The translations under genes and the position numbers were made by a program. A DNA stretch of 61,871 nucleotides from an uncultured Elusimicrobia bacterium (GTDB lineage: Bacteria > Elusimicrobiota > Elusimicrobia > UBA1565 > UBA9628): the NCBI GenBank assembly GCA_964358065.1, contig CAYHNV010000001.1:1-61871 (forward strand), read 5' to 3'. Shown here in pieces: positions 40,855-49,335 of this stretch (positions are counted from its first letter, which is position 1; each line of letters starts with the position of its first letter). The notes below the pieces were generated by a model. The model was not told the origin of the DNA, did no database searches, and saw only the letters and a program-made list of their open reading frames with translations.

Positions 40855-43779
40855 GTGCGGACGATCTGCCTGATCATACCGCCCTCGGTCTTCCTGCTCG
40901 ACGAGCGGGTGTTCATGGCCCTGGGCATCCTCAAGGTGGCCGCGGTGCTTGAGAAGACCGGCCATGCCGTCGAGCTGCTCGACCTCTCCGGCGTCGAGAA
41001 CTTCGAAGAGGTCGTCACACGGCACGCCTCATCCTCCAAAGCCTCCGTGTTCGGCCTGACGGCCACGACCCCCCAACTGCCGGCCGCGGCGAAGATCGTC
41101 GCCGCGCTGCGACGCGCGCGCCCCGACGCGCGCGCTATCCTGGGCGGGCCGCACGTGACCCTCGTCAACGCCGCCTGCAAGCGTGAGACGGCCGCGGGCC
41201 ATGAGGGCCGGGCCGCGACCGCCTTCCAGAAGCTCCAGACGATGTTCGACGTGCTGGTCGCCGGCGACGGCGAGGAGTCCATCCTGCTCGCCGTCAAGGA
41301 CGACGCCCCCAAGCTGATCGACGCCGATGACCCGGCTTCGCCGCTGTTCCTGACGAGCGCGAGGCTGACCGAACTCCCGTTTCCGGCACGCCACCTGGTC
41401 GACGTGGGCAGCTACCGCTATCAGATCGAGGGCCTGCCGGCCATCTCCCTGATCGCCCAGCTCGGCTGCCCGTTTGAATGCGGCTTCTGCGGCGGCCGCC
41501 AGTCCCCGATGCTGCGGCGCATCCGCATGCGCACGACCGAGAACATCGTCGCCGAGATCGAGATGCTGCACCGCGCCTACGGCGTGCGCGGCTTTATGCT
41601 CTACGACGACGAACTCAACGTCAACACGCGCATGATCGAGCTGATGCGCGCGATCCGAGCCCTGCAGGACCGTCTCGGCGTCGAGTTCCGCCTGCGCGGC
41701 TTCGTCAAATCCGAATTATTCAACGACGAGCAGGCCGAGGCCATGCGCCAGGCGGGCTTCCGCTGGATCCTCACCGGCTTTGAGTCCGGCTCGCCGCGCA
41801 TCCTGAAGAACATCAACAAGAAGGCCACGCGAGAGGAGAACACCCGTTGCGTGGAGATCGCGCACAAGCATGGCCTCAAGGTGAAGGCCCTGATGTCGAT
41901 CGGCCATCCGGGAGAGTCGGAGCAGACGATCGCCGAGACGCGAGATTGGCTGCTCTCGGCCAAGCCCGAGGACTTCGACGTGACCATCATCACCACCTAT
42001 CCCGGCACGCCCTACTACGACCGCGCCGTTCCCGTGCCGGGAAAGCCCGGACTCTGGTCCTACACTTATGAGAAGACCGGCGACCGCCTTTTTTCGCAGG
42101 AGGTCGACTATACCGAGGTCGCCGACTACTACAAGGGAAGCCCGGACGGCGGATATAAGTCCTTCGTCTATACCGACCACCTGAGCGCGGAGAAGATCGT
42201 CGAGCTGCGCGACCAGACCGAGCGCGACGTCCGCCGAATTCTCGGCATCCCGTTCAACCCCTGCCGCGTCGCCCACCGCTATGAGCACTCGATGGGCCAG
42301 ACGGAGCTATCCGCCGAGGTGCTGCGCGTCAGCCGCCCCGGCCGGAATTACAGGATACGCTTTGTGGCGCTGCTGCTTGTCGTTGTCGCCCTTTGGCTCG
42401 GGCGGTCGCGGCAGGTCCGCGTGACCCCTCCGCCGGCCAGGCCCGAACCGAGCCCACTTTCCAGGCTCGCAAAAACCCCCCCGCCTCGACCTGCGCCGCA
42501 GCCGCCTGCCGCTCCACCGGCGGCGCCCATTGCTTCCCCGCCGGTCGCGGACATCCCGGCGACTGCCCCGGAGCCGAAGACCGAACTTCATCAAAATCTC
42601 ATCCCAAAGGATATCAGCATTATCCGCAGCTATTACTCTCAAGAGATCTTGGCGCCGGGCTCATCGTTCGGATTGGACATCAACGGTTCTGGATTCACCT
42701 CGGAGTTCGGGCGGATGATCACGATTGATCCAGGCGGCGCGGACATGGCGGTCAAGGACCTGCGCCTGGTGACGGCCAACCAGATCAACGCGAGCATCGA
42801 GGTCGGCACCGATGCGAAAACGGCTTTCTATTACCCCCAAGTCATGATCAAGGGATTGCCGGTCTTCCGCGCCACGCAGCCGTTTGGCGTGGTTCGGCGG
42901 GGGGAGGTTCTGGCGATTAGACAGTTGTCGGTGGCCGAGGACAGCCGCTCGATGCGATTTAGCGTGATCACGAATTTAACCGAGAACATGGTTAAGCAGT
43001 TCTGGGTCGCGCCGACCAAGCCGGACCTGGAAATATCCTCCTTGGAACCGAAACTGCCGTTTGCCGTGGAAGGCACGCTGCGCATCGGCAAGGCCTCGGA
43101 GAGCGGCGCCTCCGGGCTCATCGTTTTTCTCTTCTCCCGTGAAATTTACAGGAGCCGCGACATGGTCAATCTTGCGCTGCCCAACTTGGGCAAGGCCGGA
43201 TTGACGCGAGGAATCAGCGCCGTCGATGCGTTCCATCGCCCGGGCGATACGATCTCTCTTTGGGTGCGAGGCGCTGGTTTTACACCTTCCGATGCGGGCC
43301 TGCTGACTGGTCGCATCGATGGTCTTGACGCGGGTCCGGCCTCGTTCGTCTACGCCTCGCCGACTGAAATATCATTCTCTTTTATTCTGCCGGCGACCGC
43401 TCCAGAGGGTTCCTATGGCGTAACGGTTAATGACGCCGCGGGGAAGGTCCTGGCACGGGCTCAAGACGCCTTGACCATCGTTGCCCCGCTGTGGCTGCGA
43501 GGGGTGGAGGTTTCCCCAAAGGCCCTGGCGGGGCGGACGGCCGTTCTCCATGTCTCAGGACGCGATTTCACCCCCGAGTTCGCCCGGGGCTTCCAGGCCG
43601 CATCCGAGGAACCGGGGATACGCATTTCGCGATTTACGCTGGCCGATCCCTCGACGCTCTCGGCCGAAATCACGATCGGTCCTTCGGTCGCGGCGGGAGA
43701 CTATTGGCTGACGTTCAGCTCCCTCGGCAAACCGGTCCAGCCCCAGTTTCCCGGCTTGATCAAGATTTCGGCCCCATGA
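40855..43779 (+). CDS. B12-binding-domain radical SAM enzyme fused to a TM helix, Pro-rich linker and C-terminal Ig/IPT-like repeats
   Basis: GTG 40855 lies 1 nt after the GT2 stop, with an alternative TTG at 40825. The N-terminal Rossmann-like region reads ICLIIPPSVFLLDERVFMALGILKVAAVLEKTGHAV. The radical SAM motif CPFECGFC is at 41467-41490. The hydrophobic helix FVALLLVVVALWLG lies at about 42358-42402. The Pro-rich segment lies at about 42420-42560. The remainder is beta-rich repeats (INGSGFTSEF, VRGAGFTPSD...GSYGVTVND, VSGRDFTPEF...GDYWLTFSS). Confidence 0.7.
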   Translation: MRTICLIIPPSVFLLDERVFMALGILKVAAVLEKTGHAVELLDLSGVENFEEVVTRHASSSKASVFGLTATTPQLPAAAKIVAALRRARPDARAILGGPHVTLVNAACKRETAAGHEGRAATAFQKLQTMFDVLVAGDGEESILLAVKDDAPKLIDADDPASPLFLTSARLTELPFPARHLVDVGSYRYQIEGLPAISLIAQLGCPFECGFCGGRQSPMLRRIRMRTTENIVAEIEMLHRAYGVRGFMLYDDELNVNTRMIELMRAIRALQDRLGVEFRLRGFVKSELFNDEQAEAMRQAGFRWILTGFESGSPRILKNINKKATREENTRCVEIAHKHGLKVKALMSIGHPGESEQTIAETRDWLLSAKPEDFDVTIITTYPGTPYYDRAVPVPGKPGLWSYTYEKTGDRLFSQEVDYTEVADYYKGSPDGGYKSFVYTDHLSAEKIVELRDQTERDVRRILGIPFNPCRVAHRYEHSMGQTELSAEVLRVSRPGRNYRIRFVALLLVVVALWLGRSRQVRVTPPPARPEPSPLSRLAKTPPPRPAPQPPAAPPAAPIASPPVADIPATAPEPKTELHQNLIPKDISIIRSYYSQEILAPGSSFGLDINGSGFTSEFGRMITIDPGGADMAVKDLRLVTANQINASIEVGTDAKTAFYYPQVMIKGLPVFRATQPFGVVRRGEVLAIRQLSVAEDSRSMRFSVITNLTENMVKQFWVAPTKPDLEISSLEPKLPFAVEGTLRIGKASESGASGLIVFLFSREIYRSRDMVNLALPNLGKAGLTRGISAVDAFHRPGDTISLWVRGAGFTPSDAGLLTGRIDGLDAGPASFVYASPTEISFSFILPATAPEGSYGVTVNDAAGKVLARAQDALTIVAPLWLRGVEVSPKALAGRTAVLHVSGRDFTPEFARGFQAASEEPGIRISRFTLADPSTLSAEITIGPSVAAGDYWLTFSSLGKPVQPQFPGLIKISAP

Positions 43780-43807
43780 GCCTGGAGTCAAGGGCAGCGC
43801 CAGCATG

Positions 43808-44641
43808 TTATTCGTCAGCGGCGGGCAGGGGGGTGAGTATACCTTTGTGGTGCAGGAATCCGCTGGATCGGGGGTAGTCGTAGCAATTGGCCAACCCGCA
43901 CTTGTTTAATATTTTTTCGCTGAAATGACTGCAGTTATTGCTCAGATAACCAAATCTAAAGGCCTTTTTTGTATAGACTTTGGCCCTGCCATCCAAGCAA
44001 TCCTTGTACCAAGCAAGAGATTCTCGCGGCTCTTTACCATTCAGGCAAACAGGCATTGAAGACAGGTGCGGGTTCCATGCTTCCAAGCTTTTCCGTTCGT
44101 CAGCGTCTTCATAAAGAATAACATCGCCCTTCCCCGAGGAAACAGAATACCCCATGAGCGTCGCCTTGATCCCATATCGGGTAAATTGAGGTTCTTTGAT
44201 GCGGTTGTATTCGTTGCTGTCTTGAAGTTCCAGCTGCCAAAAAGAACCATCTTCGTCTACGATTCGAACAGCGGCATGGCTCAAAATGCGCAATGCCTGG
44301 TAAAATTCCAGACTGATGCCCGGAACAATTATTGAAAAATCGCCATCAACGCGAGCGGGCGAGGTCGCGCTGGTCTGGGGGGCGGCAGGGGCCTTGATTG
44401 CTCCGGCTTCAGACAGGAACTCGTCGACAGCCAGGCTCTGCCCCGCGCCAAATCCCGCATCTTGCCCCCAGGAGGACCCCGCGGAAACGGCGATCAGACA
44501 AAGAAATCCCGCCGCCACGACTCCGGCTCGATTTTTCTCCACTCGTTCAGCCCCCCACCGTCGAATGTTGTGAGTATAGCCTGGGCGCCGGCTTTCGTGT
44601 CTGGGCCGGAGGACCCACAGAAGAAGCGCTAAGAGGCCCAT
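43808..44641 (-). CDS. Secreted hypothetical protein with LRAT/NlpC-P60-like (NCxHF) C-terminal domain
   Basis: ATG 44641, with an alternative GTG at 44542 just before the signal-like AGVVAAGFLCLIAVSAGSSWG. The C-terminal motif FGYLSNNCSHFSEKILNKCG resembles the NCEHF catalytic-Cys motif of LRAT/H-rev107 enzymes. An upstream His lies in ILSHAAVRIVDEDG. The gene body is conspicuously AT-richer than its flanks. Confidence 0.5.
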   Translation of the reverse strand: MGLLALLLWVLRPRHESRRPGYTHNIRRWGAERVEKNRAGVVAAGFLCLIAVSAGSSWGQDAGFGAGQSLAVDEFLSEAGAIKAPAAPQTSATSPARVDGDFSIIVPGISLEFYQALRILSHAAVRIVDEDGSFWQLELQDSNEYNRIKEPQFTRYGIKATLMGYSVSSGKGDVILYEDADERKSLEAWNPHLSSMPVCLNGKEPRESLAWYKDCLDGRAKVYTKKAFRFGYLSNNCSHFSEKILNKCGLANCYDYPRSSGFLHHKGILTPLPAADE

Positions 44642-44706
44642 CCTTTTTACTTGCGCGTCGCCATGTATCAGGCCCCGTAATTTGCCATACTAGGGGCAGG
44701 TAGAAA

Positions 44707-47106: not shown

Positions 47107-49335
47107 ATGCTCCCGATGCTGATCCTAGCGCTCCTTCACCTCCTGTCCGCCTCACCCGTCCACGCGGCAGGCGTCGTCGGCCAGACCCGAGTCCAGGCCC
47201 ACGCGACGCAAACCGGGCCGATCCCGCTTCCCTCATGGGTTGGAAACCACGCGCCCATCGGCTTGCCGGGTGCCAGCCTCGGCCTCCAGACCAATCTTCC
47301 GGGCTTTCAGGCTCCGGCCATCGTCCGCTCGCAGGCCGCTCCCATCCCGGCCGCCGCAGTCCTGGCGGGCCCTCTTCCGGCTGCCGCGTTCTTCGACCGC
47401 GCCCGGCCCGACAGCCGGGCCGAGGCGGTCCGGCTGGACTACTCCCGGTTCCTCGGGGAGGTGGGGTTCCGCGACTATCCTTCGGCGATCTCCGCGAACC
47501 TTGCCAAGCCCGGCCTCACGGATCTCCAACGCAAGGTGCTTGGGTTCAACGCCAAGCGCTATCGCGTCATGATCGCCGCGCGCGACCTCGCCTCCGAGGT
47601 CATGGCGGGCCTGGTGGAGCAGGACTATGCCCCGGAGGCCGTCGAGACCGCGGCGGAGCTGGCCGCGAGGCTCTTGAGCCTCCAGCCGCTCGACCCGCCT
47701 TCGAGCCTTCCCGCGGACATCGCCCGCACGGACAAAGACTCCATTCGTGGCTGGCTGGTGGCGGTCACGGTCCAGAAGCTCACCGCCCAGTTGGGCCAGG
47801 TCGTTTCGGACGTCTCCAAGGCCGCGGTCCCCTCCGTCCTGTTGAAGCAGGGGCTCAAGGACTTCTCAGAGGGCCGCAGGGAGTCCACAGCGGCGCGCGA
47901 GGTCGCGGGCCGGGTGGGCAGGATCAAGGACCTGGCCGAGGTCCTCCTGGTCGCGGCCTACACCGACGCCGAAGCGGGGCAGACTCGCTACGCCGGCCGC
48001 GCCCTGGCCGCGTCCCTTGTCCGCTACTCACGCATGAACGAGAGACCGCAGGTTGAGGAGCTTCTTCGAGCGAAGGTCTCGCAGCGGGGCCAGCACCTGG
48101 AGAATTTCATCGGCGACACCCTCGTTGTCCCGGACCGGAGCTCATCTGCGGGCGTGAAGCGCCTCAAGCTCCACACCGGCGACTTTCTCGGTGAGCGCAG
48201 CGGCGGACGGGAAGCCGCGGAGATCACCTTCGGCGTGCGCCCCCCGCTCAAGCTGTGGTGGAAGGCGCTGCGGTCCAGGCTCCTCGGCCACCCTCTCGGG
48301 CTCTGGGCGAACCCGAAGGAGGGAGTCAAGCTCAAGCCCGGCCAGCCCGTTCGCAACCGGCTCAGGCAGCTCTTGGCGGGCTTCCAGCGCTGGTTGGCGA
48401 ACCGGCGGTTTCTGCACAACGGCTACTCGCACGTGGGCATGGCCTCTCTTGAAGAGTCCGACGGCGTGGTCATGGCCTGGGCGCTCGACAACTACCCCAA
48501 TGCCGGGGAGGGCGGCATCCGCAAAATCGGCATCGCGGAGGAGTTCGCCCAGCATGGGCCGTTCGTCAAGCTTGGGGTGGCCCATCTGGACGCGGACCGG
48601 GTCTGGGATTCCTTCCAAGCCCAGGCGGCCCGGGACGGATACAGGGAAGCTGTCTACAGATCGGGGGACGGCTATTGGCCTTCGCTGATGACTCCGGAGG
48701 AGCACCGGGCCCTGCTCGCCATTCCGCGCTCGGATTCGGCCCGCCTCCTGGCCGAGCTTGCCCGCCGCGCCGCGGCCTCGATCGAGGATTTGATGACGCG
48801 TCTGGGCACGGGCTTCGCCTACGGATTCGTCAATGAGATCTGGCGCGCTTACTGCAGCTCGACGATGATGCTCGCTTACCGCATGGGCGGGCAGTTCGAG
48901 ATCCAGGCCGCGCCCGACCATTTTCACCCCCTGGTCCTCCTCATGAAGAAGCTCGGCCTTCCGGGCGCCAAAGACCAGAACACCGATGGCCGCATCATCT
49001 GGCCGGGCAGCCTCTTCATCGATCCCAAGGTCGCCAGCCACCAGACGGCGGACTACACCGAGTACCGCGAGGTCGGCAAGATCACCAACCCCTATACGGT
49101 TGCCGCCTACGTCGAGATGGATCCGGCCCTGACCCGGGACATCATGGTCCTGGCGAGGCTCTCGGGTCTGGAGATCACGCCGGACAAGGGTCTCATCGCG
49201 GCCGTGCTCATCAATCACCTCGACAATCGGGCCCAGAAGGCGCGGTCCAAGACCGGCTACGCGACGGGCGCAGCCCCGGCGACCGGCTACTCGTCGGGGC
49301 TTGAGGGTCTTCTTGAGGATCTCGGCGGGGACTGA
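47107..49335 (+). CDS. Large secreted hypothetical protein. The C-terminal half has a possible permuted papain-like amidase (YaeF/YiiX-like) domain
   Basis: Signal peptide MLPMLILALLHLLSASPVHAAG. The motif NGYSHVGMA, followed about 130 aa later by WRAYCSSTMMLAY, resembles the His-then-Cys order and local motifs (ySHvGi ... yCSelv..ay) of the YiiX family. Confidence 0.5.
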   Translation: MLPMLILALLHLLSASPVHAAGVVGQTRVQAHATQTGPIPLPSWVGNHAPIGLPGASLGLQTNLPGFQAPAIVRSQAAPIPAAAVLAGPLPAAAFFDRARPDSRAEAVRLDYSRFLGEVGFRDYPSAISANLAKPGLTDLQRKVLGFNAKRYRVMIAARDLASEVMAGLVEQDYAPEAVETAAELAARLLSLQPLDPPSSLPADIARTDKDSIRGWLVAVTVQKLTAQLGQVVSDVSKAAVPSVLLKQGLKDFSEGRRESTAAREVAGRVGRIKDLAEVLLVAAYTDAEAGQTRYAGRALAASLVRYSRMNERPQVEELLRAKVSQRGQHLENFIGDTLVVPDRSSSAGVKRLKLHTGDFLGERSGGREAAEITFGVRPPLKLWWKALRSRLLGHPLGLWANPKEGVKLKPGQPVRNRLRQLLAGFQRWLANRRFLHNGYSHVGMASLEESDGVVMAWALDNYPNAGEGGIRKIGIAEEFAQHGPFVKLGVAHLDADRVWDSFQAQAARDGYREAVYRSGDGYWPSLMTPEEHRALLAIPRSDSARLLAELARRAAASIEDLMTRLGTGFAYGFVNEIWRAYCSSTMMLAYRMGGQFEIQAAPDHFHPLVLLMKKLGLPGAKDQNTDGRIIWPGSLFIDPKVASHQTADYTEYREVGKITNPYTVAAYVEMDPALTRDIMVLARLSGLEITPDKGLIAAVLINHLDNRAQKARSKTGYATGAAPATGYSSGLEGLLEDLGGD

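Follow-up and report, generated by a model that had tools for sequence, protein, structure and literature searches.

What does a small, AT-rich gene do in a GC-rich groundwater Elusimicrobiota genome, and how did it come to be there? The gene in question lies on the minus strand of a 61,871-nucleotide stretch of DNA, analyzed as a whole and called the window here, with a radical-SAM/Ig-array fusion gene on one side and hflK on the other. An original prediction, made from the letters alone, had read it as a horizontally acquired gene for a secreted LRAT/NlpC-P60-like protein. The 277-codon open reading frame (ORF) that it listed exists exactly as described, and the AT-rich runs and the peptides ILSHAAVRIV and FGYLSNNCSHFSEKILNKCG that it quoted are all found in the sequence. 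On balance, we favor a related explanation, namely, that this is a horizontally acquired gene for an exported acyl enzyme of the cell envelope, which would represent a highly diverged, unannotated clade within the circularly permuted NlpC/P60 superfamily.

The product belongs to a small family that is defined by a C-terminal Cys/His domain (Table 1). An exhaustive homology search of 1.84 billion representative proteins (E ≤ 1e-3), in which the first codon of the query, GTG, was taken as Met, returned just 24 matches, about 17 of them with this domain and none annotated beyond "hypothetical" or "OmpA-like." Residues were counted in two alignments, A8 with 22 members and A5 with 16; the scans of loci were made with sub-groups of the family because the diverse alignments A2, A5, and A6 are without a conserved stretch of 7 to 10 columns. 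Down to 23% identity, the domain keeps (nearly) invariant a His (SHAA[IV]RI), a Gln-x-Glu pair (F[WY]QxELQ), an Arg, a Tyr (WY.xC), a Gly, and five Cys, one of which is held by an NC box of the form [YW]-x5-N-C-x-[HN]-F. Both residues that had been put forward as catalytic are conserved among the homologs: the His (H122 of the 277-residue ORF) is present in 22/22 sequences of A8 and 16/16 of A5, and the NC-box Cys (C237, equivalent to C204 of the likely 244-residue product and C136 of the domain) is present in 22/22 and 15/16, respectively. The Gln and Glu found 14 and 16 residues after the His are invariant in all members, as are four further Cys besides that of the NC box.

An AlphaFold2 model of the domain alone, built from a 22-sequence alignment (predicted local distance difference test score [pLDDT], 81.8; predicted template modeling score [pTM], 0.79), places the His in a strand at residues 19 to 27 (beta2), the Gln/Glu pair in a strand at residues 33 to 39 (beta3), and the NC Cys as the first residue of a helix at residues 136 to 146. 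The order of elements, beta-beta(H)-beta(polar)-...-beta-alpha-beta-alpha-alpha(Cys), is presumably the same in the PLAAT structure 4DOT. Among the PDB entries searched with Foldseek, the domain model matched the H-box/NC protein 2A of Aichivirus best (E 0.30; prob 0.51; target template modeling [TM] score, 0.46 to 0.52). Among the top BFVD matches were a "lecithin retinol acyltransferase" of Marseillevirus (145 columns; E 0.14; prob 0.75) and polyproteins of kobuvirus and parechovirus, which contain an H-box/NC 2A protein (prob up to 0.80). The full-length model (pLDDT 63) yielded Foldseek noise and weak Aichivirus 2A matches.

Sequence comparisons returned the same group of proteins below the customary thresholds. 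When 19 members were scanned singly, the sub-threshold Pfam matches were to Peptidase_C97/PPPDE in three (PF05903; best 14.3 bits and E 0.038, in a relative, for a gathering cut-off of 29.2 bits) and to LRAT in two relatives (PF04970; E 0.12 to 0.24, short of the 24.3-bit cut-off), with RTE1 and DUF4796_C appearing in one member each over the NC-box region. Because PF04970 is found in 0/301 genomes of the phylum, and there was thus no reference alignment, the family profile was aligned to a single sequence, that of PLAAT3, whose reference matches 4FA0 and 7ZOM exactly and differs from 4DOT in the last residue alone. The hhalign score was 23.9 (P 1-3e-3) over 15 to 26 columns, above the scores of 300 composition-matched shuffles (mean, 12.1; standard deviation [SD], 2.2; maximum, 20.9) and of 119 length-matched chunks of real proteins from the window (maximum, 18.8). 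The motif NC.HF occurs twice in the 3.0 million six-frame ORF residues of the genome, and its combination with an H-box, as H-box...Y-x5-NC.HF, occurs in this gene alone, although this pattern was defined post hoc, after the protein had been seen.

Several results weigh against such an assignment. The window protein has no Pfam or NCBIfam match even at E ≤ 10, PF04970 included, and none in PHROGs, PADLOC, or a phmmer search of PDB; the absence of a significant match to the LRAT and NlpC/P60 profiles counts formally against the identity first proposed. In PDB, the best match of the family profile, to PLAAT4/RARRES3, is not significant (E ~0.9) and lies over the NC motif. Alignment to DeSI-1 scored 18.5, inside the control range. 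Sequence similarity is confined to 15 to 28 columns around the NC box, the His box was never aligned by hhalign, and a global hhalign run of the family against PLAAT3 found nothing. Foldseek gave no match at E < 0.1 (best E 0.1 to 0.3; TM, 0.3 to 0.5 overall and 0.36 to 0.52 for the superfamily members ranked at the top; none significant), and none of the PLAAT, LRAT, YiiX, BcPPNE, and PPPDE crystal structures is among its top 50 PDB matches. At the residue level, one member of A5 has Ser where the NC Cys is expected, and position Cys-7 (codon 43952-43954), which is Tyr in 19/22 relatives and Trp in 2/22, is Phe in the window copy and in its 98% twin, P0001. As judged from the sequence, the window copy may be weakened catalytically because this Phe stands at the position of the superfamily's "essential" Tyr; a Tyr does occur two residues downstream.

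All the weak signals converge on the permuted NlpC/P60 superfamily (LRAT/PLAAT/PPPDE, with H-box and NC motif), and none of them is significant. Since profile and structure matches stay below significance, the assignment is plausible and well motivated rather than a demonstrated membership. What stands of the original LRAT/NlpC-P60-like identity is that every weak similarity favors the permuted LRAT/PLAAT/PPPDE branch; no significant profile or structure match came to its aid. The same results could be taken to mean that the domain is not papain-like but a new disulfide-rich extracytoplasmic domain, serving as a binding protein, an inhibitor, or an enzyme of another chemistry, whose NC.HF resembles that of LRAT by convergence. 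This would accord with the lack of a significant result in any profile or fold search and with a similarity limited to one short motif, with five invariant Cys that could be purely structural or metal binding, with the Ser that replaces the NC Cys in one member, and with the absence of the Tyr from the window copy. However, independent methods return one superfamily and nothing else that recurs, the invariant His, Glu, and Cys are modeled on exactly the elements expected of the permuted fold, and the PLAAT3 score exceeds those of all 419 controls, which makes convergence an improbable account in our view. We conclude instead that the fold is probably that of the permuted NlpC/P60 superfamily, in which the family would form a new, extracytoplasmic, and highly diverged clade.

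Comparison with characterized members indicates where such a clade might sit. Permuted NlpC/P60 enzymes have in common a Cys, a His, a polar residue, and a Tyr, i.e., C154, H49, E64, and Y127 in BcPPNE, C128, H49, E64, and Y115 in YiiX, and C108, H38, E47, and Y101 in PPPDE1 (PMC3142127). The putative counterparts in the Cys/His family are C136, H21, E37 (or Q35), and Y129 (= Cys-7) in domain numbering. The LRAT/PLAAT group (H-rev107, HRASLS; PF04970), when taken to include picornavirus 2A proteins such as that of Aichivirus (PDB 7ZV1), ranks top in the PDB profile search, in hhalign, and in both Foldseek libraries. As in that group, His precedes Cys, with H122 lying 115 residues before C237; an H-x-[AG]-[IV]-x-[IV] box is predicted on a beta-strand; and the Y..(5)..NCEHF signature corresponds to Y-x5-N-C-x-H-F (NNCSHF in the window), with the Cys at the N terminus of a helix. 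Unlike LRAT/PLAAT proteins, whose third residue is a His, the family has Glu/Gln, and it differs further in having four additional invariant Cys, more inserted sequence separating beta3 from the Cys helix, and a predicted extracytoplasmic location. The C-terminal membrane anchor of LRAT/PLAAT proteins is likewise missing from the window protein, which ends in ...HHKGILTPLPAADE with no hydrophobic segment and has a putative N-terminal Sec signal instead.

The YaeF/YiiX-like proteins (Escherichia coli YiiX, 2IF6; Bacillus cereus BcPPNE, 3KW0; MEROPS C92) are bacterial and show a comparable His...Glu...Tyr...Cys tetrad, with a His-to-Glu spacing of 15 in YiiX and BcPPNE (PMC3142127) and 16 in the Cys/His family. 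There was no sequence or Foldseek match to them; the NC.HF motif is absent from these proteins, which are also not known as disulfide rich. PPPDE/DeSI proteins (PF05903, Peptidase_C97; 2WP7, 3EBQ), the commonest sub-threshold Pfam match, likewise have an NC.(H/T)F motif downstream of a His, and the Tyr that most of the family has at Cys-7 is present in them too, but they are eukaryotic and viral cytosolic enzymes. The Tox-Act1/TseH/DUF4105 clades comprise phospholipase toxins of type VI secretion systems (T6SS) and Bacteroides lipoprotein N-acyltransferases (PMC12994826), to which Staphylococcus aureus LnsA (PMC7387801) may be added; these proteins act in the periplasm or envelope on phospholipid or lipoprotein acyl chains. 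The catalytic residues of Tox-Act1 are H43 and C151 (PMC12994826), and the His...Cys distance of about 108 residues in this type compares with 115 in the Cys/His family. No hidden Markov model match connects the two, and the family is without T6SS, Rhs, or immunity context.

Sequence context makes the GTG at 44542, giving 244 residues, the most likely true start, rather than the ATG at 44641, giving 277, because all close homologs (7/7) begin at the hydrophobic segment and the GTG is preceded on the coding strand, at a distance of 8 nt, by a G-rich Shine-Dalgarno-like run, GGTGGGGGG. The ATG has no comparable upstream context. With the GTG start, the signal-like hydrophobic segment of the original prediction becomes what looks like an ordinary N-terminal Sec signal, MEKNRAGVVAAGFLCLIAVSAGSSWG followed by Q, which is conserved in homologs: its n-region contains K and R, its hydrophobic core spans 15 residues, and positions -3 and -1 hold small residues. 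We infer that the protein is exported by this route. Other members have a signal peptide, a helical region of about 100 residues, and extra N- and C-terminal Cys. In one clade (20 loci, on low-GC wetland-type and other metagenome contigs), a lipoprotein signal (LVSC) is followed by an OmpA-like, peptidoglycan-binding domain (PF00691, E 4e-21) and then by the Cys/His domain. The domain family is thus predicted to be extracytoplasmic throughout, because signal peptides or lipoboxes occur throughout it. The OmpA-fusion loci of L025-L041 (e.g., L027:5404-6699 and L030:5404-6696) encode about 430 residues on contigs with a GC content of 0.40 to 0.52, and L042 and L043 hold stop-broken copies. A further protein, P0026 (1145 residues, with a CATRA-C domain), gave six weak repeat matches to query residues 124-168, the region of the His-strand hairpin (overall E 2.5e-4), and is probably a case of beta-hairpin repeat resemblance.

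In the mechanism that we propose, the product would be exported by its Sec signal and mature into a short leader plus a disulfide-rich catalytic domain of about 170 residues. According to the model, H89 on strand beta2, oriented by E105/Q103 of the neighboring strand, would activate C204 at the N terminus of its helix; C204 would then take up an acyl group as a thioester and hand it to water or to an acceptor. The remaining four invariant Cys would pair as two disulfides, as expected outside the cytoplasm, so that the five Cys would amount to one free nucleophile and two disulfides. The enzyme would find its substrate in the cell envelope, a lipid or lipoprotein acyl ester or amide being favored over a peptidoglycan amide. 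By analogy, we favor a phospholipase, an acyltransferase, or a lipoprotein-acyl enzyme, because the characterized permuted members act on lipid or lipoprotein acyl chains and have hydrophobic S1 pockets: their substrates are acyl lipids (PMC3142127; PMC12994826), and the S1 pocket of the YiiX/BcPPNE type binds lipid (PMC3142127). The base composition, the distribution of the gene, the conserved residues, and the predicted order of structural elements are observations, whereas the fold family, active-site geometry, disulfides, export, and substrate are deductions.

With the same permuted fold, the protein could instead be a peptidoglycan amidase or endopeptidase that remodels the wall or lyses neighbors. 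Its predicted export, the abundance of wall hydrolases among NlpC/P60 enzymes (PMC3142127), and the clade in which a lipoprotein signal and an OmpA-like peptidoglycan-binding domain precede the Cys/His domain all suit this role, and the OmpA fusion, which fits a peptidoglycan substrate equally well, speaks against a lipid substrate to that extent. Nevertheless, the wall-active NlpC/P60 enzymes are of the canonical Cys-then-His type, whereas the permuted clades characterized so far use acyl lipids. PF00877, the canonical NlpC/P60 profile, has no match at E ≤ 10 in any of the 19 members, whose His/Cys order is reversed, and OmpA-like domains can also merely tether proteins at the interface between the outer membrane and the wall. 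An amidase thus strikes us as unlikely, and an envelope enzyme acting on acyl chains remains the preferred reading. The data themselves discriminate neither of the roles first suggested, lipid-directed effector or cell-wall amidase.

The N-terminal part of the window protein is also found on other proteins. Residues 1-56 (window 44375-44542, minus strand) form a cassette of signal peptide plus leader (xGFGxGQSLDVxEFLxEAR..KAP), in which AlphaFold2 puts a short helix at VDEFLSEA. This cassette is 49 to 64% identical on proteins with unrelated C-terminal parts, i.e., L049:754-1689 (-), L050:1435-2355 (+), P0019, P0022, P0025, P0027, P0028, and P0030. The parts behind it are of at least six unrelated kinds, one being an FGE-sulfatase domain (PF03781, E 4e-52) in proteins of two genomes, G251 and G298. 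The cassette occurs in 3/301 genomes of the phylum, all in the taxonomic family of the window's genome, and once in that genome; the leader would thus be specific to one Elusimicrobiota family. Because the cassette is restricted in this way and distant relatives of the domain have other N termini in its place, the domain seems to have become attached to an export leader peculiar to the lineage. The cassette may serve this lineage as a tag for sorting or export.

One leader on at least six unrelated C-terminal domains, in front of a patchily distributed and foreign-looking gene, also recalls polymorphic toxins, antibacterial or anti-eukaryotic, in which a trafficking leader carries a swappable C-terminal toxin domain; Tox-Act1 and TseH are themselves periplasm-acting permuted NlpC/P60 phospholipases. 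We give this reading very little credence. The six different contexts examined speak against a toxin: they contain neither secretion-system genes nor a conserved immunity-like gene next to the family gene, and they have no neighbor gene in common at all. Moreover, the leader looks like a short segment behind an ordinary Sec signal, it is found once per genome here, an FGE-sulfatase-type domain that is not a toxin is among its passengers, and there are no PADLOC or PHROG matches. An extension of the envelope acyl-enzyme reading, which we regard as speculative and unlikely, is that a new extracytoplasmic, disulfide-stabilized clade, comparable to LnsA, the DUF4105 N-acyltransferases, or the Tox-Act1 phospholipases, remodels lipids or lipoproteins of the outer membrane, and that in one Elusimicrobiota family it was captured behind a cassette acting as an unrecognized sorting/export tag for unrelated cargo domains.

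The question of origin can be answered with more confidence. The low-GC islet noted in the original prediction is real: its GC content is 0.464, and the lowest-GC 480-nt segment of the whole 61.9 kb, at 43871-44350 (0.460), is about 4.7 SD under the mean of such segments (0.644; SD, 0.039). The domain-coding part has a GC content of 0.477 and a GC content at third codon positions (GC3) of 0.528; rounded, this GC3 of 0.53 compares with 0.66 for the leader and 0.81 to 0.86 for four neighboring genes, namely, the radical-SAM fusion gene, hflK, hflC, and the gene for a 742-residue orphan. These GC3 values rule out a mere effect of amino acid composition. A search of the phylum with the domain profile was positive in 2/401 sampled genomes, the window's own and G298, a genome from a different genus in that taxonomic family; no copy was found in any of 24 same-genus or 16 same-order genomes, and the sole carrier among other GTDB species representatives is one uncultured Elusimicrobia metagenome-assembled genome.

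The gene is located at a synteny breakpoint, since nucleotide homology with the closest sister, G021 (HflK 92% identical), runs only from 44696 onward, just before the hflK start codon, with a Ser/Thr protein kinase gene upstream of hflK instead (L010:1-1311), and since the radical-SAM gene and hflK are on separate contigs in all sister genomes checked. No clean "empty site" was found in the sister genomes, where the two flanks are not syntenic. Gene similarity conflicts with species relationships as well. NusA identity to the window's genome is 80% for L006 (genus level), 81% for G021, 88% for G251, and 70% for G298, yet the L006 copy of the gene is just 53% identical and in a different context, the G298 copy is 69% identical, and the two fall in different subclades of a maximum-likelihood tree. 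Horizontal acquisition, as originally proposed, is therefore well supported by the 2/401 distribution, the synteny break, and gene similarities that contradict species relationships. Searches for flanking repeats and mobile-element signatures met short chance repeats only and no tRNA-type signatures, and no plasmid or phage homologs of the gene were found. On each of the long contigs examined (L003:8001-8756; L006:8001-8681; L027, L030, L036, and L039), the family gene has a higher AT content than its host DNA, and this holds for low-GC hosts too, with gene and host GC contents of 0.53 and 0.69 in L003, 0.555 and 0.65 in L006, 0.40 and 0.52 in L030, 0.42 and 0.50 in L036, and 0.39 and 0.455 in L027. 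This suggests a family-wide AT-rich bias, due either to repeated transfer or to a compositional constraint.

Table 1. Features of the gene and its surroundings in window coordinates; residue numbers refer to the 244-residue form unless stated otherwise.
Feature	Coordinates	Strand	Remarks
Longest ORF	43808..44641	-	277 aa + stop; first 33 codons without counterpart in any homolog
Most likely coding sequence	43808..44542	-	GTG start, 244 aa + stop
Predicted Sec signal peptide	44465..44542	-	Residues 1-26; predicted cleavage between SWG and Q
Conserved post-signal leader	44375..44464	-	QDAGFGAGQSLAVDEFLSEAGAIKAPAAPQ; alignment A9
Low-GC tract	43860..44340		Coincides with the domain-coding part of the gene
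Cys/His domain, ~168 aa	43835..44338	-	Residues 69-236; alignments A5 and A8; family-defining, low-GC
Invariant His codon	44276..44278	-	H89 = H122 of 277 = H21 of domain; H-box-like SHAAVRI, predicted strand beta2
Invariant Gln-x-Glu	44228..44236	-	Q103/E105 = Q35/E37 of domain; next strand; candidate third, His-orienting residue
NC box F-G-Y-L-S-N-N-C-S-H-F	43922..43954	-	Aligns to the PLAAT3/4 NC motif; Cys codon 43931-43933
Intergenic region between the gene and hflK (divergent)	44543..44706		Sister homology begins only at 44696

If the assignment is true, a secreted, disulfide-rich bacterial clade that all curated profiles have missed would be added to the permuted NlpC/P60 (LRAT-like) superfamily, with one of its lineages tethered to peptidoglycan via an OmpA-like domain, and poorly known groundwater and wetland bacteria would gain a candidate activity for remodeling envelope lipids or lipoproteins. 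The family would then be a useful seed for a new Pfam entry, and the cassette could mark a lineage-specific secretome. As a lone accessory gene without operon partners, the locus has a modest biological reach.

Around the gene, a consensus scan of the region shared with hflK (44543-44706) detected no sigma-70-like promoter. On the other side, the convergent stops of the radical-SAM fusion gene and the 244-residue gene are just 28 nt apart (43780-43807), and no terminator-like hairpin was detected within that interval. Farther away, at 47107-49335 (+), the secreted 742-residue orphan has no Pfam match at E ≤ 0.01; it was compared with a 719-residue neighbor of the L003 homolog as possible kin, and the two proved unrelated. 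Sister-genome matches to the radical-SAM fusion protein (window 40915-43776, plus strand) cover merely about residues 1-475 to 1-556, and several of the longer ones cross one to three in-frame TGA codons.

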